Shown here piece after piece: positions 39,510 to 56,600 of a DNA stretch of 64,000 nt (position 1 is its first letter; every line of letters begins with the position of its first letter). The translations under genes and the position numbers were made by a program. This DNA is from a bacterium (GTDB lineage Bacteria > UBA8248 > JACPRG01 > G963555815): the NCBI GenBank assembly GCA_965261595.1, contig CBDHDG010000004.1, positions 288,001-352,000 on the forward strand. Reading direction: 5' to 3'. Under the pieces are notes generated by a model. The model had not been told where the DNA came from. It saw only the letters and a program-made list of their open reading frames with translations, and did no database searches.

Positions 39510-40819
39510 TCACCTGGGAGGCCTTTCGTAAACCAACCGGTGGTATTTCCACTCCCCCCAATTTTTCTCGTGCTTTTTGTAAACGTCTTGGGCCTCTTCA
39601 TGGCTCAGGAGAAATGTTCGTGCATCTTCATGGCTCAGGAGAAATGTTCGTGCATCCCACAGCTCCGGAAACACCCTTTTGGCCAATGTCTTTTGCAGAT
39701 AGGGAATTCCGGATCCCTCTTCTCCGTGAGTTGAAATCCGGCCTCCACCGAGCACCCGAGCGACCATCGCGATATGCCGGTCACGAAAGTTCGAAAAGGC
39801 TTGGTCCAGTACAAGCAAGGCCTCAATGAGTGAAGCGGGCCAGGCCAATAGGGGTTGATCGGAAAATTGCAAAGTAAAAACGATTGCGCATCGGTATCGC
39901 TTCCGGAAGTACAAGTCAATTTTGCGACTCGCTTCGGCCTTCAGCCTTTTCCCATGATCCCCATGTACCTTTCCCAGCCCGCCCAGTTTCTTCAAATCAT
40001 TGGAATAGGCTTTGAGATAGATCTCCTGAAATCTCGCCGAGAAGAGGAGACTATGGCTTTTACGCGGCGGCGTCTTTCCTCCCGGGGATGGAAAAACCGC
40101 ACGATCCAGCCACTCAACGACTGTCGAACGAAGCGTTCCATTTTGGTCCAGGTCTCTGAGACGATTTTTCAAGGCATGGTTCCTGGACTTCAATTCGGGC
40201 GGCAGGATGTCAAGATTTTCAATCATATTCTTGCATGTCTTTCGATAATCCAGTAGAGACTGAAATTCCTGCTCATCACGAGTCGGGTAAACAACCTCAT
40301 TTCGTGTCCGTGATCCTTCCTTATCGTTTTTGGGAGCCTTTCCCCTCGGCAGTCTTTTCTTCTCTTCCATCAACCCTTTTTCGAACTCAACTTTCCCTGA
40401 TACATATTTCTCCAGTTTCGGATCCCGGAAACCATCAACCATTCGACTTCCAGAAATCTGTAGGAATCCCTCCCGCTGCCCCCGAATAATTGACTCCTAA
40501 AATCATAAAAGCTCGTGGTTTGCAGGGTTTCCAATAATGGAAGATGGTCCCGAACCAGATTGAAGATTTCCGCCGCGCGTCGCACATGCTGTTCGATCGG
40601 TGGAATGTCATGTTCGGGAACATAATCAGACGAAAGTAATGTGCGCGCGAACTCCAGCTCGTCCAGGATTTGTGCAAACCAGATTTCAAAGGCCTGATGC
40701 GTGCGAATGAAGAACTTCTCGTCGGGATCTTTTTTCCTTCTCCCCTTTGGCTTCACAAGGGGAAGCCGGTCAGGGAAAATATAACCATCATAAGTGTTGG
40801 GCTTATTTTTAGAAGCCAT
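39510..40819 (-). pseudogene. Tryptophan 2,3-dioxygenase-like heme protein, -1 frameshift at about 40432
   Basis: DEKFFIRTHQAFEIWF, LETL..SFYDFR, FRDRHIAMVARVLG, YLQKTL..VFPELWDART; one added G (ATG G[G]T TTC) joins the two ORFs into 436 aa. Confidence 0.8.
39595..39656. repeat. Exact 30-bp tandem duplication inside the TDO-like gene
   Basis: tcttcatggctcaggagaaatgttcgtgca x2; encodes DARTFLLSHE twice. Confidence 0.95.
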
Positions 40820-41626: not shown

Positions 41627-42958
41627 ATGTCGAAAGCTCTGGACAAGCTCAACGAGCGGCTCACGGCCCACATGGAGGTGATCCTCCGCTGCACGGTCGA
41701 ATCCAAGAAATACGGCCGGCTCCTCCTGGCCTCCCCGCCGGTATCCCGCTATCCGTACGTCTACCCCCGGGACACGAACTGCGCCGTGCAGCTTTTCCGC
41801 CGCCTGGCCGGTTCGGAACGCGGCTACGACGCCGGACCGCGGGCCTTCGAGTTAATGAAATCGATGGCCCACTTCATGAAAGATGTGGTTTCCGAAGACG
41901 GCAACTGGGGTCAGCGATACAGCCTGGAGGGCGAAGACAAAAGCCTTTACAAGCAGGAAGACAACGTCGCCCACGGGGCGGCCATCATCTGCAACTATCT
42001 CCTGACCGCCCACCGCTTGAAACAACCCGTCGACGATCTGCAAAGCCTGCTCGATGCCATCGAAAAGGCCCTGCGCCACGCGCTCCGTGATTTCTACCAG
42101 CCGGAGCTGAACCTGTTTCAGTCCACCACGTCCATCCACGAATCGGCGATGGAAGAAGGTTACACGTGCTGGGTGAACTTCGCGTTCCTGTACGCGTTCT
42201 CGTTGGCGAACGAAGTGGCCGACAAATTCGACCAAGAGGGGCGGATCTCCCGTGATCACCTAAGCTTCCGAAAACACTTTCTGCATTCCGTCAACGAATT
42301 GTTCATGTCCGGGAATCGATACGTCCGGCGCATCGATCCGCAAGGACACATGGACTTCCGGCCGGACTTCACCTTGCTGAGCCCGTTTTACTTCGGTTTT
42401 CTGCATTACCGGAAAGAGATGGAGAAGAGCGTCGACTTCCTGGAGAAACAGTTGTGGGACCCCCAATTCGGGATGATCATGCGCTACCTCCCGTTCCGCC
42501 GGGACTTTACCACCCACGTCCACGCGGGCAACGGCCCCTGGCTGCAATACACGGCCATCCTGGCCCAATTCCACTATTGGAACGGAAACACCGAACGGGG
42601 CGACGGGCTGCTGGCCGCCATCGACGGGTACAGGAATGAAAAAGGCGAGATCCCCGAGCACCTGTCCACCTGCGCCCGGTTCGAGGCGTTCAGGAAAAAC
42701 GAATGGAAGACCGGCCTCGACTTCGACAAGGAATTCGACAAACACATCCTCCTGGACGACGTGGACTTCGACAAGATGCTGGAGGAGACGAACCACATGG
42801 CCGCGGCTTATCGGGAAACGGGAGGCCGGGGCATGTTTCGCGATTCGGTGGAAGCGGAGGGGGGCTACATCCAGTTCGCCACGCCCCTGATGTGGTCGCA
42901 TGTCGAGTACGCCCGCGCCCTCCTGGTCCGGGACAAAGACTGGTGGAAGGTCGCCTGA
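41627..42958 (+). CDS. Glycoside hydrolase family 15-like (alpha/alpha)6 protein
   Basis: YPYVYPRD, QEDN, SIHE, GEIPEH, ATPLMWSHVEY resemble GH15 motifs (YxWxRD, QxD, WEE, LPEQ, PLxWSHA). Confidence 0.7.
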   Translation: MSKALDKLNERLTAHMEVILRCTVESKKYGRLLLASPPVSRYPYVYPRDTNCAVQLFRRLAGSERGYDAGPRAFELMKSMAHFMKDVVSEDGNWGQRYSLEGEDKSLYKQEDNVAHGAAIICNYLLTAHRLKQPVDDLQSLLDAIEKALRHALRDFYQPELNLFQSTTSIHESAMEEGYTCWVNFAFLYAFSLANEVADKFDQEGRISRDHLSFRKHFLHSVNELFMSGNRYVRRIDPQGHMDFRPDFTLLSPFYFGFLHYRKEMEKSVDFLEKQLWDPQFGMIMRYLPFRRDFTTHVHAGNGPWLQYTAILAQFHYWNGNTERGDGLLAAIDGYRNEKGEIPEHLSTCARFEAFRKNEWKTGLDFDKEFDKHILLDDVDFDKMLEETNHMAAAYRETGGRGMFRDSVEAEGGYIQFATPLMWSHVEYARALLVRDKDWWKVA

Positions 42959-43015: not shown

Positions 43016-43045
43016 TTGACCGCCTATGCGGCCCTACGCTAAATT
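43016..43045 (+). promoter_or_regulatory. Candidate sigma70 promoter for the grd-like operon
   Basis: TTGACC - 18 nt - TAAATT, 200 nt before the grdE-like start. Confidence 0.4.
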
Positions 43046-43244: not shown

Positions 43245-44507
43245 GTGAAGCTGACGCTGAATTCCTTCCCGGTCGATGAAATCAAGGATTCCCGAAAAAC
43301 GGCCCTCGACGGCCACCGATTGCTGGTGAACCGGCAGGAGATGCGCGACCTCCTCCTCGAGGATGAGCGGCTCATCTCCGCGGAGATCGACTTCGCTCAT
43401 CCGGGCGAGTCCTGCCGGATCATCAACATCCTCGACATCTTCGATCCCCGTATCAAAGCCGAGGGCGAAACCTTTTGCGGAATCCTCGGCCCCGCGAAGC
43501 TCGCCGGAAGCGGGACGACGAACGTCCTGATGGGAATGAGCATCGTGACGTGCGGCCCGTTGGACGGGGCGGAGGACGCCTTCCTGGACATGACCGGTCC
43601 TTGCGCGGAGCTCAGCCCGTTCGCGGGTCTCGAAACGGTGGTCGTGCGCCTGACGCCCGCCCCCGGCCTGGACCGGGGCGGTTTCGCGAGGGCGGCGGTC
43701 GAGGCGGGCGTAAGGGCCTCCGGCTACCTGGGAGAAACCACACGGTCCGGGACGCCCGGGGGCTCGGAGCGCTTCGAGCAGACTTCGCTGTCCGGATCTA
43801 ACGGGCGCGACGATTCCCTTCCCAGGATCGCGTACATCTATCCCATTTACTCTCAGGGCGACGCCCGGGACATGCTCCTTTACGGGAGAAACACGCGCGA
43901 CCTGATCCCGACGCTCATCCACCCCAACGAGGTGATGGACGGGGCCGTTGTCTGGGCGGGGTTCTGCCGGCCCGCCAAGAATGTGACCTACAACCATCTG
44001 AACCACGGCGTCATCCGGACGCTCTACGAGGCTCACGGGCGCTCCATCTCCTTTGCGGGCGTCATCGTGACGAACCACCCCAAGCTGTTCTCCGACAAGG
44101 TCCTCTACGCGGAGATGATGGCCCGTTTCGCGGCCGACATCCTCGCCGCGGACGGGGTCATCGTCACGAAGGATTCCGGCGGCCAGGCGGACCCCGACTT
44201 GATGCAGATCTGCGAGAAGTGCGAGGAGCGGGGCGTGAAGACCACCCTTCTGACCATGGAAGCGGCCGGCGACGGCGGCTCTTCGGCGGGCGCGCTGGTG
44301 GACGCAAGCCCCCGGGCCGACGCCATCGTCGCCGTCGGAAATACCGTCGAGGAGGTCCGACTCCCCCGGATGGAGCGCATCCTAGGGGGCGACCGCCTCA
44401 AGGACTTTGAACAGGACCCGCGCGATCCCGTCGAGGTCTGTTTCAACAAGGTCCCCGGCGCCATCAGTCTGTTCGGCGACAACCGTCTCGCCGCTCTGGA
44501 GATCTAA
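43245..44507 (+). CDS. grdE: Glycine/sarcosine/betaine reductase component B proprotein (GrdE/GrdG/GrdI family)
   Basis: EDERLISAEIDFAHPGESCRI, PTLIHPNEVMDGAVV, KNVTY, ADGVIVTKD, ADAIVAVGN; GTG start with GGAGA RBS, 420 aa; exact paralog type uncertain. Confidence 0.85.
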   Translation: MKLTLNSFPVDEIKDSRKTALDGHRLLVNRQEMRDLLLEDERLISAEIDFAHPGESCRIINILDIFDPRIKAEGETFCGILGPAKLAGSGTTNVLMGMSIVTCGPLDGAEDAFLDMTGPCAELSPFAGLETVVVRLTPAPGLDRGGFARAAVEAGVRASGYLGETTRSGTPGGSERFEQTSLSGSNGRDDSLPRIAYIYPIYSQGDARDMLLYGRNTRDLIPTLIHPNEVMDGAVVWAGFCRPAKNVTYNHLNHGVIRTLYEAHGRSISFAGVIVTNHPKLFSDKVLYAEMMARFAADILAADGVIVTKDSGGQADPDLMQICEKCEERGVKTTLLTMEAAGDGGSSAGALVDASPRADAIVAVGNTVEEVRLPRMERILGGDRLKDFEQDPRDPVEVCFNKVPGAISLFGDNRLAALEI

Positions 44508-44529
44508 AGATTTTTTCGGAGGCCCGGCC

Positions 44530-45834
44530 ATGGCCGCCCCATACCGCGTGGTCCATTACCTGAATCAGTTTTTCTTCGGCCTCGGCGGCGAAGAGAAGGC
44601 ATCCATCGAGCCGACCGCGAAAGCGGGTCCCCTCGGTCCCGGCCGGCCCTTGCAGGAAGCGCTGGGCGGCGAAGCGGAGATCGTCAAAACCGTCACGTGC
44701 GGGGACAACTTTTTCGCCGAGCGCGCCGAGGAGGCATCGGATCGGCTCCTGGATCTCATCGAGGAGTCGCGGCCCCACCTCCTCCTGGCCGGGCCCGCCT
44801 TCGACGCCGGCCGCTACGGCCTGGCGTGCGGCCACTTGTGCCGAAAAGCCGGCGCGACCCTGAACATCCCCGCCATCACCGCTCTGGCGCCCGGAAACCC
44901 GGGCATCGAGCATAGCAAGGACGTCTACATCCTCTCCACCTCGAACAGCGTCCGCGGGATGAACCCGGCCCTCCAAGACATGGCCCGCCTCGGTCTCAAG
45001 CTGATGCGGGGAGAACCCCTGCGTTCCGCCCGCGAGGAAGGATATCTTCCAAGGGGGTTCCGGAAAAATTTCCGCGTCGAGAAGCGCGGAGCGGATCGGG
45101 CGCTCGACATGATCCTGGCCAAGGTCCGGGGGCGGGCTTTCGAGACCGAGCTCATCCTGCCCAAGTTCGACGGGGTCCCCCCGGCCCCGCCCGTCAAGGA
45201 CCTGGAATCCGCCAAAATCGCCCTGGTCACCACGGAAGGACTGGTCCCCAAAGGCAACCCCGACCGGATGGACTCGACCCGGGCCGACCGTTACGCCAAA
45301 TACCGTATCGAGGACCTTGACGCCCTCGACGCCTCGGCCTTTGAATTCCACCACGGGGGATTCTCCACCGCGGACGTCAATAACGACCCCCACCGGGCCG
45401 TTCCCCTGGACGTCCTCCGGGAGATGGAGCGCGAGGGCCGGATCGGCAAGCTCTTCGGCGACATCTACAGCTTTGCCGGATGCAGCACGTACTACGAAAC
45501 GGCCGCCGGGATGGGGCGCGAGATCGCCCGGGAGCTGAAGGGACGCGGCGTGAACGCCGTCCTCATCCTCTCATCCTGAGGGACGTGCACCCGCTGCGGG
45601 TCAGCGGTCGCGAAGGAGATGGACAGAGAGGGCGTTCCGGCGGCGCTGATCACCACCTTGATCTCGGTCGCCAAAAACGTGGGCGCGAACCGAATCGTTC
45701 CCGGCGCCGGCGTCCCCCACGTAACCGGAAATCCGGACCTGGGACCGGAGGGCGAGCGAGCGCTTCGCGCCGCGCTCGTCGAGCGGGCCCTGACGGCCCT
45801 CACCACCCCGCTGGAAGAGCAGCGGGTGTTCTGA
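44530..45834 (+). CDS. grdB: Reductase component B selenoprotein (GrdB/F/H family); UGA 45577-45579 = Sec350
   Basis: VVHYLNQFFFGLGGEEKA, CGDNFF, GPAFDAGRYG, GLVPKGNPD; frame continues through TGA as ILSS-U-GTCTRCG, the UxxCxxC motif; 434 aa. Confidence 0.93.
45591..45607 (+). promoter_or_regulatory. Putative bacterial SECIS hairpin for the grdB-like UGA
   Basis: ccgctg-CGGGT-cagcgg; 17 nt between UGA and loop, G at loop position 2. Confidence 0.65.
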
Positions 45835-45930
45835 ACATTCGGCGGCGGGACCGCCCCTTCGAGATTCGGCGGCGGCATCCGGCTAAGGCCAGCCCGGCGG
45901 TTTTCGGGCGATGATTCGAGAGGAGGATCC

Positions 45931-46395
45931 ATGCTCAAAGGAAAAAAGGTGATCGCCCTGGGCGAACGGGACGGCGTGCCGGGCGACGTCGTTGCCGAGT
46001 GCGCCGAGGCGGCGGGTGCCCAGGTTGTCCTTCAGATGACCGAGTGCTTCGTCTGAACATCGGCCGGCGCCATGGACATGGAGCGTCAGGGCGATATCCG
46101 ATCCATCGTCGAAGAGCGCAGCCGGGAAGACCTCATCGTCGTTCTCGGCGCGACAGACGTGGATTTCCTGTCGCTGGCGGCGGAGACGGTCGTCTCCGGC
46201 GACCCCAGCTATGCCGGTCCATTGGCGGGAGTCTCGTTGGGACTCCCTGTGTACCACATTCTGGAGCCCGGGCTTCGCGCGGAGATCCCCGCGCCGCTCT
46301 ATCAGGAGAAGCTTGAGCTCGTCTCGATGGTCGCCGACCTGCCCGGAATCGGCCGGGCGTTGGAGAAGTTTCGCGCGGCGCCCACGGGAGATTGA
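45931..46395 (+). CDS. grdA: Reductase selenoprotein A; UGA 46054-46056 = Sec42
   Basis: GAGGAGG RBS, MLKGKKVIALGERDGVPG ... TECFV-U-TSAGAMD (CxxU) ... ETVVSGDPSYAGPLAGVSLGLPVYHILEP; 154 aa; the N-terminal half is missing from the ORF track. Confidence 0.95.
46066..46087 (+). promoter_or_regulatory. Putative bacterial SECIS hairpin for the grdA UGA
   Basis: ggcgccat-GGAC-atgg(ag)cgtc; 17 nt between UGA and a loop starting GG. Confidence 0.6.
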
Positions 46396-46455
46396 CACCC
46401 GGACGGCCGTGGCGCGGCCCCCGGCGGCCTCACGCCTGCTGACCCACGGAGGATC

Positions 46456-47838
46456 ATGCGAAAGGCGACGATTTCGGCCTCAACGTGCGTTCTCGCGCAC
46501 ACGCCCGCGCTCGTTCGGTACGGCTCGAAGCCCTTCCGGGAGAGCCGGCGCGACGGCGGCTTCCTGCCGGCCCTCGAAGCCCGGATCCGGTCCTTCGAGG
46601 CGGCCGCCGCCTACCCGCCCAACCAGGTGTTTATCGGGAACCTCCCCCCCCAAGCCCTGCGGGACATCGATCCTCCTTGGTATGAACATCGGTCACCGGG
46701 GGCGGAACGAACGTCGCCCACGGGTGAGATCATCCCGGAGGACCGTTTCCTCGCCCTCCTCAACTCAGCCGACGCGTTCGGCCTCATCGACCTGTCTGAG
46801 GATTTTTGCCGAACGATAGGGCTGGAGGGCGCCGGCTCATCGCGCGACTTCTCGGGCCTGGGGAGCGCGGACGCCGAGCTGCCCCTGTTCTTCGAGGGTG
46901 AGGCCGTGGGGCGAATCCGATCGGACCATGAAGAAGACGATTCCCTCAAGGCGGCCGTTCTGCTCGAAAACCTGGCAGCGAAGGCCTCGGCCTTTCAGGC
47001 GCTGGAGCTGCTGCTGGCTCACCCCGGCGTTCCCGGCCGCGATTCGCTGGATTTCATCATCGGCTGTTCGGAGGAAGCCGTCGGCGACCGCTACCAACGG
47101 GGCGGCGGGAACCTCGCCAAGGCTGTCGGCGAGATGGCCGGACTCGCCCAGGCCGGCGGAGCGGACGTCAAGAACTTCTGCGCCGGCCCCCTTCAGGCGC
47201 TCATCTTCGCGGGCAGCCTCGTGGCGTCCGGGGTGTTCGACCACGTGGCCGTCGTCGGCGGGGGTTCCCTTCCCAAGCTGGGGATGAAGGCGTCCGCCCA
47301 CCTGGAGCGCGACATGCCGATCCTGGAGGACGTCCTGGCCGGCTTCGCCGCATGGGTGTCGGCGGACGGAGAAGGCCCCCGGATCCGATTGGATGGAACG
47401 GGCTTTCACCGGATCGGCGCCGGAAACGCCCAACAGGCCATTCTCGAATCCCTCGTGGCCGAGCCCCTCGGGCGCCTCGGCCTGCGCATCACCGACGTCC
47501 CCGTGTACGCGACCGAGCTCCACAATCCCGAGATCACCGTCCCCGCCGGCGGCGGCGACGTTCCCCGGACGAACTACAGGTTCATCGGGGCGCTGGCCGC
47601 CCTTCGCGGGGAGATCGACCGCTCGGAGATCGACCGCTTCGCCGACGACCACGGGCTGCCGGGGTTCTCCCCCTCGCAAGGGCACATTGCCTCCGCCGTG
47701 CCGGCCCTCCCCCACGTCCTTCGGCGGTTCACGGAGGACGGTCTCGACCGGGCGTTCTTTCTCGCGAAGGGGAGCCTCTTTCTCGGCCGGATGACCCGGC
47801 TTTCAGACGGGGTTTCTTTCCTGCTTGACGCCGGTTGA
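46456..47838 (+). CDS. grdC: Glycine/sarcosine/betaine reductase component C beta subunit
   Basis: YPPNQVFIGN, LLENLAAKAS, CSEEAVGDRYQRGGGNLAKA, FCAGP, TELHNPEIT, PSQGHI, KGSLFLGRMT. Confidence 0.92.
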   Translation: MRKATISASTCVLAHTPALVRYGSKPFRESRRDGGFLPALEARIRSFEAAAAYPPNQVFIGNLPPQALRDIDPPWYEHRSPGAERTSPTGEIIPEDRFLALLNSADAFGLIDLSEDFCRTIGLEGAGSSRDFSGLGSADAELPLFFEGEAVGRIRSDHEEDDSLKAAVLLENLAAKASAFQALELLLAHPGVPGRDSLDFIIGCSEEAVGDRYQRGGGNLAKAVGEMAGLAQAGGADVKNFCAGPLQALIFAGSLVASGVFDHVAVVGGGSLPKLGMKASAHLERDMPILEDVLAGFAAWVSADGEGPRIRLDGTGFHRIGAGNAQQAILESLVAEPLGRLGLRITDVPVYATELHNPEITVPAGGGDVPRTNYRFIGALAALRGEIDRSEIDRFADDHGLPGFSPSQGHIASAVPALPHVLRRFTEDGLDRAFFLAKGSLFLGRMTRLSDGVSFLLDAG

Positions 47839-47924
47839 GGGCCGATCGGCGGGAGGGGCGGCCGGAAACCGGTCCCTTCTCATCGGGCGGACTCCAAGCG
47901 CAACCGGAGAGACCGCCCGAAGAA

Positions 47925-47953
47925 ATGACACGTCAACGACAAACTGCTACCAT
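47925..47953 (+). promoter_or_regulatory. Sigma70-type promoter with extended -10 for the Rieske/amidohydrolase pair
   Basis: ATGACA - 17 nt - TACCAT preceded by TGn; TGAC-AC-GTCA dyad overlaps the -35. Confidence 0.55.
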
Positions 47954-47995
47954 CGACACGAGTGGACTGAAGAAACAGATTGGGGAGAAGCAAAC

Positions 47996-48361
47996 GTGCC
48001 GGGGTTGTATGTGGGAAACGTGGAGGAGTTCGAAGAGCGCGGGTGCAAGATCATCGGCCAGGGGGACATCGAGATCGGCGTGTTCCGGGTCGGGGAGGAA
48101 TATTACGCCTACCGAAATGTCTGCCCCCACCAAGGCGGCCCGGTCTGCCAGGGGCGGATCCTGGGCAAGGTGGAACAAAGCCTAGCCGAGGACAAAACAA
48201 GCCGGGGGCTGAGGTTCTCGAACGATCACATCCACATCATCTGCCCCTGGCACGGTTATGAGTTCGATCTCCAAACCGGGGTTCATCCGGGGGACCATCG
48301 CGTCCGCCTGGTCGGTTATCCGATAGAACGCCGCGGAAATGAAATCTACGTCGTCGTGTGA
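47996..48361 (+). CDS. Rieske [2Fe-2S] ferredoxin
   Basis: NVCPHQGGP and ICPWHGYEFDL; GTG start with GGGGAGA RBS. Confidence 0.92.
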   Translation: MPGLYVGNVEEFEERGCKIIGQGDIEIGVFRVGEEYYAYRNVCPHQGGPVCQGRILGKVEQSLAEDKTSRGLRFSNDHIHIICPWHGYEFDLQTGVHPGDHRVRLVGYPIERRGNEIYVVV

Positions 48362-48393
48362 CGCGCTCCTCACACAGGAGGGGAGAATGACAG

Positions 48394-49641
48394 ATGAGTG
48401 ATCCTCAGACGGAGCAGGTGGCGGAAAAAATCCGGGAGTTGGAGCGAATCGGCGATCAGACCGACACGCGCGAAATCCTGGCCCTGGCGAAGAAGCAGGC
48501 CATCGAGAGGAAATACGAAGACTACGTGATCGTGGACGCCGACTGCCACCACATGGAAACCGCGTCCTGGAAGAATATCCTCCAGTACGTCGAAGACCCG
48601 GTCATCCGCCAACAGGCCCTGGACTTCCAGGCCCGGGTCGCGTCTCCCCATTACGGCCTGATCGATCCGCTCGCCTACCACCAGGACGCGGGCGGACGCA
48701 TCCGGCACCAGCGCCACCAAGGCTGGAGCGAGTCCGGCGAAGACGCGGGCGTTCATCGCGACATCGTCCAGATCCGTCGCTCGCTGGAGTGCCTCGGGAT
48801 CGACTATTCGGTGCTCTTTCCGACAAGAATGCTGGCCCTGGGGATGAACCCGCAGATCGAGATGGAAGTCCTGATGGGCCGGGCCTACAACCACTGGATG
48901 GTCGATCAGGTGCTGCCGGGCGACGACCGGATTAAGTCGCTCCTCTATCTGCCCTTCAGCGCGCCGGACGCGGCGTTGCGCACGATCGAGGAGTTCTCCG
49001 ACAAACCCGGCGTGATCGGCTTCCTGGTCACGAGCGTCCGGAACATTCCGGTTCACGACGACCGGTACATGAAGATTTACGCCGCCCTCGAGGAGCGCGG
49101 GCTTCCCCTCGCCTTCCACGGCGGTTACTCCTGGCACGACCCGAGCATGGCCCAATTCGACCGGTTCATCGGGGTGCACGCCATGGGCTTCGTGTTCTGG
49201 CCCATGGTCCACCTGATCAACTGGGTGATCCACGGAATCCCCGAACGGTTTCCGAACCTCGACATCATTTGGCTCGAGGCCGGTCTGGCCTGGGCGATCT
49301 TCCTGATGGAGCGCCTGGACGGCGAGTACATGAAGCGCATCTCCGAGGCGCCGCTGCTGAAAAAGAAGCCGAGCGAGTACATCCGGGAGATGCACTTCAC
49401 CACCCAGCCCCTCGAAATGGATAACCTCAAGGCGCTGGAGCTGAACTTCGAGATGCTCAACGCCGAGACGCAGGTCCTGTACGCCTCGGACTGGCCGCAC
49501 TGGGATTTCGACCTCCCCAGCACGATATTCGATCTGCCCTTCCTCAGCGATCAGGCCAGACGGAACATCCTGGGCGAGACCGCGATGAAGCTGTTCAAAC
49601 TGGAGAAGCCGCGCAAAAAGATCATTCCCGCCGACAATTAG
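48394..49641 (+). CDS. Amidohydrolase_2-fold protein, candidate dinuclear-metal oxygenase
   Basis: VDADCHHME, AFHG, LEAG, FTTQPLE, ASDWPHWDFD; directly follows the Rieske ferredoxin. Confidence 0.8.
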   Translation: MSDPQTEQVAEKIRELERIGDQTDTREILALAKKQAIERKYEDYVIVDADCHHMETASWKNILQYVEDPVIRQQALDFQARVASPHYGLIDPLAYHQDAGGRIRHQRHQGWSESGEDAGVHRDIVQIRRSLECLGIDYSVLFPTRMLALGMNPQIEMEVLMGRAYNHWMVDQVLPGDDRIKSLLYLPFSAPDAALRTIEEFSDKPGVIGFLVTSVRNIPVHDDRYMKIYAALEERGLPLAFHGGYSWHDPSMAQFDRFIGVHAMGFVFWPMVHLINWVIHGIPERFPNLDIIWLEAGLAWAIFLMERLDGEYMKRISEAPLLKKKPSEYIREMHFTTQPLEMDNLKALELNFEMLNAETQVLYASDWPHWDFDLPSTIFDLPFLSDQARRNILGETAMKLFKLEKPRKKIIPADN

Positions 49642-50522
49642 AAGACGCCCGCCGGATCATGTCGAATGTCCGAAGAGCAGGCAGCGCCTCTTCCTGAATC
49701 ATCATGCCGATCTCGGCCCCGACCCCTCCGATTCGGGCGGCCTCGTGGAGGACGGCCGCGCGGTGGGTCTTCCTCACCGAGGTCAGAATGGTCTCCCGGT
49801 CGAGGGGGGCGACGGTCCTGAGATCGATCACCTCCACGTCCATCCCTTCCTCCGCCATCCGGTCCGCGGCCGAAAGGGCCAGGGGGACCATGGCCCCCAG
49901 CGCGACCAGCGTCAGATCGCTTCCCCGCCTCCGGACCTCCGCCTCTCCCAGTGGGACCGTGCAATCCCCCTCCGGAACGTCGCCCTGGACGGAATAGAGC
50001 CCCTTGTTTTCCAGGAAAAGGACCAGATTGTCTTCCCGAATGGCCGTCTTGAGGAGCCCTTTGGCGTCGGCGGGATTCGAGGGCATGACGACCCGGACGC
50101 CGGGGACGTGCAGGAACCAGGCTTCGAGGCTCTGGACGTGCGTCGCGCCGTTGGGGAACTGGCTCCCTAGGGCGCGCGGATGACGGCGGGGACCTTCACC
50201 TGCCCCCCCGACATGTAGCGGATCTTCGCCCCGAGGTTGACGATCTGGTCCATGGCCAGGGTGATGAAATCAAAGAATTGAAGCTCCGCCACGGGGCGGG
50301 TCCCGGCGATGGCGGCGCCGATGGCCGCGCCGACGTAGCTGGTCTCGGAGATGGGCGTGTCGATCACGCGGCCCGGTCCGAACTCGGCCAGCAGGCCCCG
50401 GGTCACCGTGAAGGACCCGTCGAAAATGGCGATGTCCTCCCCGAGACAAAAGACCAGGGGTCGCGTCGCATCTCTTCCCGCAGGGCCTCGTTCAGGGCTT
50501 CGGCGAACGTGATTCTACGCAA
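49622..50522 (-). pseudogene. ThDP 2-oxoacid/acetoin dehydrogenase E1 beta, two frameshifts and C-terminal loss
   Basis: ITFAEALNEALREEM, GEDI, DTPISE, RPVAELQFFDF, MPSNPADAKGLL, EVIDLRT found in different frames; DAPIxR segment absent. Confidence 0.85.
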
Positions 50523-50534
50523 AATCGAAATCCT

Positions 50535-51582
50535 TCAAGCAAATACGTCCGTCAACGCCTCTTCATCCGCCGGGGGCGGACTGGAAAGCGCGAACTCGGC
50601 CGCTTCTTCCACCTCTTTCTCCACCCGGTCCCGTATGGCCGCCTCTTGCCCTGCGCTCAACGACCCCGCGTCCTTCAACAACTTCCTGAGCCGGTCAATC
50701 GGGTCCCGCTTCAGCCAGGCCTCCTTTTCCTCGGCGCTGCGGTATCGCTCATGATCGGCGGTGTAGTGGCCCTTGTGACGATAGGTTTTGCACTCGATGA
50801 GCGTCGGGCCTCCCCTTCCCCCCCCTCCCCCTCCCCTCCCCCTCCCCCTTTCGGGCGCGCGCCACGGCGGATTGGACGGTTTCATAAACGGCGACCGCGT
50901 CGTTTCCGTAGATGACCACGCCGGGCATGTCGTAAGCGGACGCGCGGGCGCCGATGTCCTGGACGGAGGTCGAGACCCCGACGGCGACGGACATGGCGTA
51001 GAGGTTGTTCTCACAGATGAAGATCTCCGGCAGCCGCCAGAGGCTGGCCATGTTGAGACACTCGTGAAACGTCCCCTGGTTCGCGGCGTCGTCGCCGAAG
51101 AATACGACGGTCACCTGGTCCGTCCCCTTGACCTTCGCGGCGAGTCCCCCGCCCAGCCCCAGGGGCAGCCCGCCGCCGACCAGGCTGATGGTCCCCAGCA
51201 TCCCCACTATCGATGCTCTGGACGTGGAGGGTTCCGCCCTTGCCCTTGTTGTAGCCCGTCCCCTTGCCCAGGAGCTCGGCCAGAAGCCGCTTCATCGTCC
51301 CGCCCTTGGCCAGGACGTGGCCGTGCCCCCGGTGGGTGCTGACGATGTAATCATCCGGACGCAGGCAGGCGCACGCACCGGCGGCGACGGCCTCTTGACC
51401 GATGTAGGGATGCAGGTTGCCGGGGATTTGCCGGGCGGCGTGCATCTCGAGGGATTTCTCCTCGCACCGGCGGATCCGGAGCATCTGCTCGTAGATGCCC
51501 AGAAGGAGCGCGGCGCTTTCGAGGGAGGTCCACTTGCGGCTCTTGCCCGGCGCCTTCGTGGGGGCCGCCCAAACACTTGCAT
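50535..51582 (-). pseudogene. ThDP 2-oxoacid/acetoin dehydrogenase E1 alpha, frameshifted and with motif mutations
   Basis: GQEAVA, STHRGHGH, ENNLYA, LIECKTYRHKGH found in three frames; GDG motif reads GDD. Confidence 0.85.
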
Positions 51583-54857: not shown

Positions 54858-56445
54858 CTACCAGTCCTCATAAAATCCGTAGCCTTCGAGGAACTTCGGC
54901 TTCGGCCACCAGCGCTTGAGCTTCAGGTCCTCGGCGATGACGTTGACGGCGTTATACCCCGGGGCGAAGGTGATGGATCCGCCGGGATGACAGCACGAGC
55001 CCGTCATGTAGAGGCCCTCGATGGGCGTCCGGTAGGGCTGACGACCGATGCCGACCTGTCCGCCCGAGTAGGTGCCCATATGGTCATCGCCCCGCACCAT
55101 GTTGATGATCGCCCGGGCGTTATCCAGAGGCGTATAGCTGTAACGGTGGACAACGTTTTCCCTCGTCATGTTCGGGGCGTACTCGGCCCAGCGGTCCAGA
55201 ATCCGGTCGAAGTAGGACTCCTTGATCTCATTCCAGTATTCCGGATCGCGGCCATCGACCTCATACGGAACGAACTGCCAGAATCCGGCGGTGTGAAAGC
55301 CGCCCGGCCCCTGGCTGCGGTCGAAGAGCGTGGGCACCCAGGCCTCGCCGCCCGGCTTCGAAGGGACCCGGCCCGCTTCGATCTCGCGGAAATGCTCCAA
55401 CATCTCCTCGGGGACGTCGTAGCCCAAGGTCTGGTGGAAGCACTCGTTCATGTCGGGATATTTCTCCGCCACCTTGTAGCGCGGCGGCTCCCGCAGGACC
55501 ATGTGGGCGCCGAAGAGCGCGGACTCGTTCATCCGCCAACCCTTGACCCGCTCCACTTCCTCTTTGGGCAGATGCTCCTCGCCGACCATCTGCAGGAACG
55601 TCCGGCCCGGGTCGACGTTGCTGACGACGGCCTTCCTCGCCCGGTATTCCGCGCCGTCCTCCAGCCGCACGCCCACGGCGCGGCCCTGTTCGACCAGGAT
55701 CCGCTCCACGGAGGACTGCTGGCGGATCTGTCCCCCGTACGCCGTCAAGAAGTTCAGAAGGGCCTTTGCGATCATGTTGCTGCCGCCCCGGGCCAAGCCG
55801 TAGCGGCCCAGGCGCAGCAACATGCGCAGGGTGCCGAAGCCGGTGGCCGGCAGGGCCTCGCGCATGCGCACCGCGCTGGTGCTGAAGAAAAGGCGTCCGG
55901 ACGGTGTCGTCCTCGAAGAGCGTCTCGGTCACTTCGGTCGGGCTCATTTGGGCCAGGTCGAAGAACTCCGTCCCCAGCGCGCCGAACCGCCGCTCCAGGC
56001 GGTCCCGCCACTCCGCCGTCGGCAAGGGCGGGGCGTAGTGGTAGGCCCGCATCACCTCGTAATAGCGCTCCATCTCTACGAGCGTCCGGGCGTCTTTTTC
56101 CGAAAACTTGGAGAGGGAGCGGTAGGTGTCCTCGCGGTCCGAGTAGATCAGAAGGCAGCGGCCGTCCCGGAGCGGGATGCCGAAGTTCTTGTGGGGCACG
56201 ATGTAGGATGCGCCGTACTTGTCGAGCTCGAAGTCCTGGTAGGCGGGCGTCTCGGGACCGAAGATGTGGAAGACGGAGTGCAGGTTGAAGTAGTAGCCGG
56301 GGAAGATTTGCTCGGTCGAGAGACCGCCTCCTTCCTCCAGGCGACGCTCCAGAACCAGGACCGACTGGCCGGCCTTGGAGAGGTAGTTGGCGACTGTCAG
56401 TCCATTGTTACCCGAACCGATGACGATGACGTCGAACGTTTCCAT
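54858..56445 (-). pseudogene. Phytoene-dehydrogenase-family NAD(P)/FAD oxidoreductase, frameshift near 55892 (possible error)
   Basis: IGSGNNGL...LERR..GG, ARGGSNMIAKAL, YTPLD, YRTPIEGLYMTGSCCHPGG; two frames join at cggacgccttttcttc. Confidence 0.82.
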
Positions 56446-56600
56446 GGGTGTCCTTTGCATTCGTCGGCGCCGGCCGCGTCCAAGCCGGTGCCCGGAAATC
56501 CCGCCGGCTTTTTCAAGCCCCGCTCATCCGGCGAGGTCCGCATCGATCAGCCGCTCGATTCGACCCTCGGCAAGTGTTTCAACCGATTCCAAGAGGGCAT

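Follow-up and report, generated by a model that had tools for sequence, protein, structure and literature searches.

What becomes of the acetyl group in a glycine-reductase-like system that has no GrdD, and on which substrate does such a system act? These questions are raised by a selenoprotein operon, grdE-grdB-grdA-grdC (43245 to 47838, all on the + strand), in a 64,000-nt stretch of DNA from a bacterium of the lineage UBA8248 (contig CBDHDG010000004.1, positions 288,001 to 352,000; the window hereafter). In the textbook enzyme, as the accessible text of the sources describes it, the C2 unit of the substrate is bound to protein C as an acetyl thioester and then released as acetyl phosphate, the substrate of acetate kinase (PMC10298544; PMC9908766). 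The original prediction took the operon for a new system, with an altered GrdE, a shortened GrdC, neither grdD nor thioredoxin, a different substrate and transfer of the acyl group to coenzyme A (CoA). Our results revealed a real and intact system with glycine-reductase-like selenium chemistry and an inferred product. It does not belong to the characterised reductases of glycine, sarcosine or betaine, and it varies a known system without being a new one. The best explanation as a whole, to which we give a probability of about 0.5, is that all parts of a Grd-family reductive cleavage system are present and that the product leaves by a different route.

A complete Grd-family operon without grdD

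The selenium dependence of the operon was confirmed. Both grdB and grdA carry one in-frame TGA at the selenocysteine (Sec) position of the family, in GrdA within CxxU, and tRNA-Sec, selA and selD were all found in the genome. The GrdE-family partner (PF09338) and GrdC (NF040746; 533 bits, cut-off 450) scored above their cut-offs. By these features the operon encodes a Grd-family selenoprotein reductase in the broad sense.

The reported absence of grdD held for the window and for the whole genome (G000). With the GrdD model NF040747 only a partial 27-bit cross-match was obtained there, which was PlsX, and canonical GrdD gave no tblastn match at an E value of 1. Profiles of 12 whole GrdD proteins and of nine GrdD Cys domains found PlsX only and nothing, respectively. 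The same family search gave about 550-580 bits in three of the four control records, which were the three with grdC. In lacking GrdD, protein C of this genome departs from that of the characterised glycine, sarcosine and betaine reductases. The absence was also clade-wide: among 41 genomes of its class, grdC was found in 27 (split in one) and grdD in none, and grdD occurred in none of 50 grdC genomes (50 of the 80 found by the window GrdC; 48 without G053 and G081). Even samples of three phyla, searched with family models and with the centre genomes excluded, which avoids selection by the window query, gave grdC/grdD counts of 12/4 in 200, 9/0 in 250 and 10/0 in 300 genomes; 27 of the 31 grdC genomes were thus without grdD at the E value of 1e-30 used for grdD, at which a very divergent copy could be missed. 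A GrdD-less branch of the selenium-dependent glycine reductase relatives is widespread.

It could be argued that grdD of an otherwise ordinary glycine reductase is missing here through incomplete assembly, as most genomes used were incomplete metagenome-assembled genomes (MAGs) and G000 itself (seven contigs) is 96.7% complete and 5.6% contaminated. However, several genomes in a single contig (G006, G020, G021, G033, G035 and G037) carry grdC and no grdD. Wherever grdD is present it lies directly 3' of grdC (4/4), whereas the next gene here encodes a Rieske protein in two assemblies. One of them, an independent assembly from another study (run X3), holds positions 45960 to 50000, from grdA to past the downstream genes, in one contig with four differences, so that neither the grdC stop nor the order of the genes can be put down to misassembly. 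This explanation is effectively refuted.

Within the openly accessible literature covered, mostly at the level of listings, we found no description of a GrdD-less protein C or of acetyl-CoA as the product. The even-sample profile with its internal control, the tail and residue signature of GrdC, the acetate-kinase contrast and the independence of GrdD loss from substrate change are new here.

Two types of GrdC

GrdC was indeed shortened, ending 3 residues past the DGxS strand, compared with 36-39 residues in three canonical GrdC (511-513 aa). Canonical GrdC proteins are 511-516 aa long and have a tail of 35-41 residues with a terminal amphipathic helix, which was found in 7/7 separate GrdD-linked proteins and in no other GrdC row. 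The 214 GrdC rows, some of them duplicated from set to set, comprise 196 that end within 25 residues, eight that are longer (the seven GrdD-linked ones and L247, whose tail fails the helix profile) and ten that were not parsed; two of these ten belong to the L207 fusion and the others are short-ended by eye. Natural GrdC-GrdD fusions of 842-872 aa also occur (P0131, P0133, P0134, P0138 and L207:3998). In four natural fusions the GrdD match begins at GrdD residues 29-33, and the tail helix was not seen in the junction. The co-occurrence of tail and GrdD, together with these fusions, suggests that the tail may dock GrdD. A similarity between the tail and the N-terminal helix of GrdD was visible by eye, though not significant (E 0.35 or worse).

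A quick maximum-likelihood tree separated 12 GrdD-linked from 41 GrdD-less GrdC by one branch (98 in the SH-like approximate likelihood-ratio test, SH-aLRT); the tree also contains seven rows whose GrdD status is unknown, which were left out of the counts. The GrdC, GrdE and GrdB trees were all quick searches without bootstrap and included no Far sequence. Five residues follow the same division. In the GrdD-less rows, five of which are metagenome loci whose status is known locally only, we found K25 in 40/41, R28 in 39/41, and R212, Y213 and K278 each in 41/41, while the 12 GrdD-linked rows have T/V/A, L/Q/S, M/A/I, mostly N, and N (12/12 at the K278 column). Among 50%-identity representatives of further loci covering both motifs, 29 were of this second type (type II), 11 canonical and one mixed, a check that is partly circular because the loci were found and ranked by type II queries. 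Residue 356 was considered as a marker of GrdD loss (ELHNPE or EMQNP), with His in 100/101 non-reference rows and Gln in 3/3 references at the first count, and was rejected since GrdD-less rows with Gln and C-D fusions with His were both found. On this sequence evidence, protein C exists in a second type, the tail-less GrdC, with a branch of its own.

Fate of the acetyl group

The predicted FabH fold of GrdC with a catalytic Cys was upheld. The AlphaFold model (predicted local distance difference test, pLDDT, 93.5) matched OleA, FabH, thiolases and HMG-CoA synthases, with MvaS as the best (Z 24.4, root-mean-square deviation 4.0, 288 aligned residues), and Cys242 aligned with the catalytic Cys of FabH, so that GrdC has both the fold and the Cys of a thiolase-fold acyl-CoA transferase. 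K278 falls in the loop ahead of the DR motif in the FabH that this genome encodes; the Arg of this motif binds CoA in E. coli FabH. A GrdC homodimer was predicted with a score of 0.95 (best control 0.00), with contacts agreeing to at least 99% between runs and pLDDT of at least 92, at a mark reached by 20/30 solved pairs and 1/23 single chains; this pass may come from the likeness to solved thiolase-fold dimers. The predicted interface includes residues 24, 28, 206-220, 271-277 and 409-410, which would place the type-specific residues at or near the shared active-site region. Compared with solved structures, none of the Grd subunits tested had a close match; for the GrdE model, no clear fold match was obtained (best Z 8.1), and the sequence search of the PDB returned spurious repeat matches only.

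By homology, Sec350 of GrdB, together with the GrdE-like subunit, would displace X from X-CH2-COO- to form a carboxymethyl selenoether, and the carboxymethyl group would be transferred to Sec42 of GrdA. The tail-less GrdC homodimer would then cleave it reductively, with an acetyl thioester formed on Cys242 and GrdA left oxidised. With neither the carrier Cys nor the PlsX-like domain of GrdD at hand, GrdC would pass the acetyl group directly to CoA in the manner of thiolase-fold enzymes, presumably using the basic patch exclusive to the GrdD-less type; this would be the new step. The product would be acetyl-CoA, whose carbon is used, and not acetyl phosphate as a source of ATP. Housekeeping TrxA/TrxB would re-reduce GrdA, and the only GrdA/GrdC pair would serve all three GrdE/B pairs (grdA and grdC occur once each in the genome, grdE/grdB as three pairs).

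The claim that thioredoxin is lacking was true locally, but generic TrxA (WCAPC) and TrxB are both encoded on contig C7 and are probably the electron donor; queries with GrdX gave no match, as had been stated. Of the genes whose presence elsewhere in the genome was to speak against the original prediction, TrxA/TrxB were found and grdD was still absent. A linked thioredoxin was present in two sets of related loci, in 58/80 (genome loci) and in 5/80, and in 0/20 loci of the own class. A DUF255 thioredoxin-like gene lies next to GrdE/GrdB pairs elsewhere (L226:1207-3681, L230-L234); it was rejected as electron donor since it adjoins E/B pairs in six related loci but is on another contig in the present genome.

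We could not detect an acetate kinase or Pta in this genome (no PF00871 or PF01515 match), which does encode a heme-copper oxidase. In a comparison of 46 hand-picked genomes, acetate kinase was present in 4/4 GrdD-plus genomes, within 3 kb of grdD in two of them, and in 12/42 GrdD-less genomes, with 0/15 in the own class. The most economical reading is therefore that the acetyl group passes directly to CoA, and on balance we lean towards a tail-less GrdC that is a thiolase-fold homodimer passing the acetyl group from Cys242 to CoA. The earlier proposal of acyl transfer to CoA has thus gained indirect support from the missing AckA/Pta and the gained basic residues, with acetyl-CoA as the presumed product.

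Several observations pull the other way. An acetate-kinase-family gene does occur in those 12 GrdD-less genomes, and the comparison was a hand-picked one. The losses of the tail and of GrdD and the gain of the basic residues fall on one branch as a single event, so that they characterise a type but cannot serve as independent tests. The basic patch could also bind phosphate or the acidic GrdA, whose net charge is -10 to -23 in both types. As basic residues suit phosphate as well as CoA, type II GrdC might itself release acetyl phosphate, or hydrolyse the thioester to acetate, and serve as an electron sink or for nitrogen release; the 12 genomes with acetate kinase would fit this, as would the canonical glycine-type pairs of anaerobe-like genomes that use type II GrdC. 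We regard it as rather unlikely because acetate kinase is missing from the own genome and from 15/15 class relatives and Pta from the own genome, so that acetyl phosphate would have no obvious outlet, and because all close folds act on CoA or acyl carrier protein (ACP) thioesters. The acetyl group might also go to another thiol carrier such as ACP, or the housekeeping PlsX, a GrdD homologue present next to fabH, might replace GrdD; FabH-fold enzymes bind ACP through basic patches. However, no recurring ACP- or PlsX-like gene was found in the neighbour clusters of related loci, the GrdD profile matched only five loci of 201, all of them GrdD-linked, and 27/50 GrdD-less genomes had no PlsX-type cross-match at all. 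The Cys domain of GrdD, whose Cys359 reportedly acts as the acetyl carrier in the 2001 work of Kohlstock et al., has no homologue in the genome, and this route appears improbable.

The GrdE/GrdB module

The processing site of the GrdE-like protein is altered as had been noted: residues 232-243 read DGAVVWAGFCRP, compared with ...SGNCVSAC... in canonical GrdE (L113, L116). The Asn-Cys self-cleavage site of glycine reductase protein B, in which Cys242 gives the pyruvoyl group, was not found in the window GrdE. In an unconstrained local alignment of GrdE, GrdG, betaine-type E and PrdA, Phe240 falls in the column of the pyruvoyl-precursor Cys, as does a Phe in the betaine type, and 22/22 clade rows (19 distinct) have F/Y and then C/S at this column and the next (+1). 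The canonical GrdE site is gone, and a shifted cleavage site at the +1 Cys/Ser is possible. The window E/B pair would probably be without a pyruvoyl group and act on a substrate that needs no Schiff base.

Neither subunit belongs to a characterised reductase. The window GrdE stayed below the cut-offs of GrdG (293/780 bits), FarE (157/675) and PrdA, and GrdB below those of GrdF (499/800), GrdB (TIGR01917; 448/602) and GrdH (NF040795; 430/775), while above the cut-off of the TIGR01918 subfamily. The clade of the window pair is tight, with 13 homologues of 55-93% identity followed by a drop to 44%. As the recommended family phylogeny also showed, the E clade and the B clade (support 100 each) are outside the glycine/sarcosine/betaine reference clade (100 and 99). 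The window clade does not match the GrdB and GrdF motifs published by Nobu et al., as given in the accessible text of PMC9751293: the GrdB motif was found in L113 and L116, was missing in the clade rows L003, L119 and L120, and by inspection was missing in the window row. The clade does keep UxxCxxC, unlike the cysteine-poor actinobacterial and sister-family versions. The substrate of the window pair is probably neither glycine nor sarcosine.

The strict +1 Cys/Ser could nevertheless be a shifted self-cleavage site, which would speak against a carbonyl-free E subunit. The protein would then still be a proprotein, cleaved between Phe240 and Cys241 (Ser in the sister pair described below), with a pyruvoyl group one residue off and an amine substrate, possibly glycine, sarcosine or an N-alkyl glycine. 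Only Cys or Ser occurs at +1 in the 22/22 rows, and these are the two residues yielding pyruvoyl groups according to the accessible text of PMC9908766; GrdB retains the full canonical UxxCxxC, and the processing segment is a loop in the predicted model. However, the precursor column holds Phe/Tyr as in betaine-type E, the preceding Asn and the second Cys are lost, GrdB fits neither published motif as the accessible part of PMC9751293 gives them, and the clade is outside the characterised ones. We consider such a cleavage possible, with the balance clearly against it, and take a substrate other than glycine or sarcosine to be the likelier.

GrdD loss and substrate change are independent modules. 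A GrdD-less state does not imply a new substrate because the same GrdC also serves canonical glycine-type GrdB/E pairs. The idea that GrdD-less means non-glycine was rejected on G249 and G238, with canonical Asn-Cys GrdE, tail-less GrdC and no grdD, and on G249, G184 and G245, with AHGGYD-type GrdB, tail-less GrdC and no grdD; L137 and L216 are likewise canonical glycine-type with tail-less GrdC and no grdD locally. E and B do lie outside the characterised clades, in keeping with the different substrate of the original prediction, but GrdD loss and a new substrate do not form one innovation. As separate observations, a GrdB and/or GrdE of the canonical glycine type accompanies tail-less GrdC, with grdD missing, at L243 (G249), L250 (G238), L247, L248, L137, L216 and L163, Syntrophus-like ones among them, and L252 (G483) and L253 (G411) have three different GrdB/GrdE pairs around one GrdD-less grdC-grdA. 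In actinobacterial loci (L031:5325, L041:5360, L082:5431), GrdE frames of 760-790 aa run into GrdB as apparent GrdE-GrdB fusions. The present genome also has a third GrdB/GrdE pair in reversed order and distant from the window clade (L004:8618-11853 on G000:C2; also L229), with UbiD, cyclase, molybdenum hydroxylase and isochorismatase genes around it, and a weak (22%) homologue of the GrdB C-terminus at G000:C5:687213-687752.

Substrate clues

The neighbours of the operon are not conserved beyond the genus. The best substrate handle for the clade is the neighbourhood of a Ser-type sister pair (L003:7937-12206 on G000:C5, L225, L227 and L228), which is followed by dihydropyrimidinase/allantoinase-like and XdhA-like molybdenum hydroxylase genes in 4/4 genomes, with a DUF1989 gene 5' of the pair in two of the four. 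Such neighbours would suit hydroxylation and ring-opening to an N-carbamoyl glycine and then a reductive release of urea, though we hold this to be a long shot. That the substrate of the window pair itself is an N-carbamoyl or N-amidino glycine from the ring-opening of an N-heterocycle is an equally doubtful suggestion. The hydantoinase/XdhA link belongs to the sister pair and not to the window operon, the four sister-pair genomes are kin, amidohydrolase and XdhA families are common in the genome (23 and 10 tblastn matches), and in G004 and G006 different genes surround the orthologous operon. Grd-like enzymes with other substrates are on record: uncleaved, carbonyl-free E subunits accompany betaine and fluoroacetate according to the accessible text of PMC10838667, and Grd-like genes are induced during riboflavin breakdown according to that of 10.64898/2026.02.13.705874.

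Comparison with known systems

The window system shares its four protein families with glycine reductase (GrdA, GrdB-GrdE, GrdC-GrdD and TrxA/TrxB; Peptoclostridium acidaminophilum and Acetoanaerobium, L113 and L116), together with Sec in GrdA CxxU and GrdB UxxCxxC and a GrdC core with Cys242 and His410. Identities to the references are 33-35% (E), 43-45% (B), 43-49% (A) and 41-42% (C). It differs in the lack of GrdD, of the GrdC tail helix, of linked trx/trxB/grdX and of AckA/Pta, in the Phe at the precursor Cys column, in a GrdB outside the published motif and in a host with a heme-copper oxidase. Sarcosine (GrdF/GrdG; L114, L236) and betaine reductases (GrdH/GrdI; L115, L237) are likewise alternative protein B modules for one GrdA and protein C, and betaine-type E shares the Phe with the window E. 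However, the window pair matched sarcosine reductase neither in the GrdF motif nor in NCBIfam scores or clade, nor betaine reductase in score (NF040795) or clade, and the known hosts of both enzymes need GrdD.

In the accessible accounts of fluoroacetate FarB/FarE from Synergistota (PMC10838667) and finHI of riboflavin breakdown (10.64898/2026.02.13.705874), GrdB/E homologues that lack the processing cysteines have, or have been proposed to have, substrates that are not amino acids; those texts describe no GrdD-less protein C. The window E is far below the FarE cut-off, the window GrdB has the CxxC that FarB lacks, and the flanking genes are of other families than the radical-SAM and antiporter genes linked to fluoroacetate reductase. 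Thiolase-fold acyl-CoA enzymes (FabH/KAS III, OleA, the HMG-CoA synthase MvaS and PhlABC) share with GrdC the fold (Z 22-24), the position of the catalytic Cys and the predicted homodimer. GrdC differs from them in its 10-20% identity, its own inserts and an acyl group coming from a selenoprotein carrier, and its use of CoA would be the inferred likeness.

Genes and neighbourhood of the operon

The features of the operon are collected in Table 1.

Table 1. Positions of the operon genes and associated features in the window.
Feature	Position	Strand	Details
grdE-like gene (protein B, non-selenium subunit)	43245..44507	+	420 aa, GTG start; PF09338 360 bits
grdB-like selenoprotein	44530..45834	+	434 aa; Sec350 = TGA 45577-45579 within intact UxxCxxC
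SECIS-like hairpin (selenocysteine insertion sequence)	45591..45607	+	6 bp stem, 5 nt loop; 11 nt past the grdB UGA
grdA, selenoprotein A	45931..46395	+	154 aa; CxxU with Sec42 = TGA 46054-46056; NF040748 184 bits, cut-off 130
Tail-less grdC (type II protein C)	46456..47838	+	460 aa; thiolase/FabH fold; catalytic Cys242 (codon 47179); K25, R28, R212, Y213 and K278 type-specific
Altered processing segment of the grdE-like gene	43938..43976	+	residues 232-244; Phe240, Cys241
Weak sigma-70-like promoter match 5' of grdE	43016..43045	+	9/12 consensus positions; 3 sites in region vs 0.9 expected; not evidence of function

The start of grdE was placed at 43245 because the close homologues have 422-426 aa and align from residue 1; they do not support the longer frame from the ATG at 43026 given by the open reading frame finder, which was rejected. 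The geometry of the SECIS-like hairpin of grdB is matched in canonical grdB with changed stem pairs, and its folding energy was no better than that of shuffled sequences (z about 0 to +1); position and conservation thus make it a candidate. The closest named relatives of the genome are labelled Nitrospinota or Ca. Tectomicrobia, and UBA8248 appears as a selenoprotein-rich GTDB lineage in the list of PMC13326102, as far as its accessible text goes.

The claim that the operon ends at grdC is doubtful, as Rieske and amidohydrolase genes follow on the same strand after about 120 nt; between grdC and the Rieske gene no terminator-like site was found, only a weak promoter-like one. These two genes were rejected as parts of the system since they have five and seven paralogues in the genome and adjacency was confined to this genus and to the sister pair. 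The GH15-like and glyoxalase genes upstream were rejected too, not being conserved near relatives. The oxygenase-rich heteroaromatic catabolic context is real, but it is genome-wide in character and conserved around the operon only within the genus. Metatranscriptome contigs from three runs cover parts of all four genes at low depth, with the neighbours also covered, and were discarded as evidence of transcription, which contigs cannot show.

Other features of the window were also observed. A 443 aa protein encoded directly 5' of grdE (41627-42958, +) has a weak glucoamylase-like TIGR01577 match and no Pfam match and is not kept near related operons. A tryptophan 2,3-dioxygenase-like gene (39510-40819, -) in DNA of lower GC content occupies two overlapping frames (Pfam 16-139 and 264-346), as a frameshift or a split gene. 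Dehydrogenase E1 alpha/beta genes and a flavin adenine dinucleotide (FAD) oxidoreductase gene (49622-51484 and 54858-56460, -) seem fragmented; one contig of an RNA run has an extra base at 49833, and strain differences or assembly errors are possible there.

Implications

In the accessible text of reviews, glycine reductase belongs to anaerobes, which gain ATP from the acetyl phosphate it forms (PMC10298544; PMC13188914; PMC9751293). With 27 of the 31 grdC genomes of the even samples without GrdD, many annotations of glycine or betaine reductase in MAGs therefore probably predict the wrong product. As a highly speculative extension, a second, GrdD-free protein C outside the clostridial type might convert the selenoether directly to acetyl-CoA and connect many different GrdB/E modules to the central metabolism of marine and soil bacteria that respire oxygen. 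The window module would then be a new one that reductively strips ring-opened heterocycles, N-carbamoyl glycines akin to hydantoic acid, of urea or guanidine, perhaps with its Cys/Ser pyruvoyl site in a shifted register. The single-subunit protein C is the simplest tool yet for studying the role of GrdC in the formation of the acetyl thioester, and the five diagnostic residues offer both a ready classifier and targets for mutagenesis. If acetyl-CoA is formed directly, shorter engineered routes from glycine to acetyl-CoA would become available.

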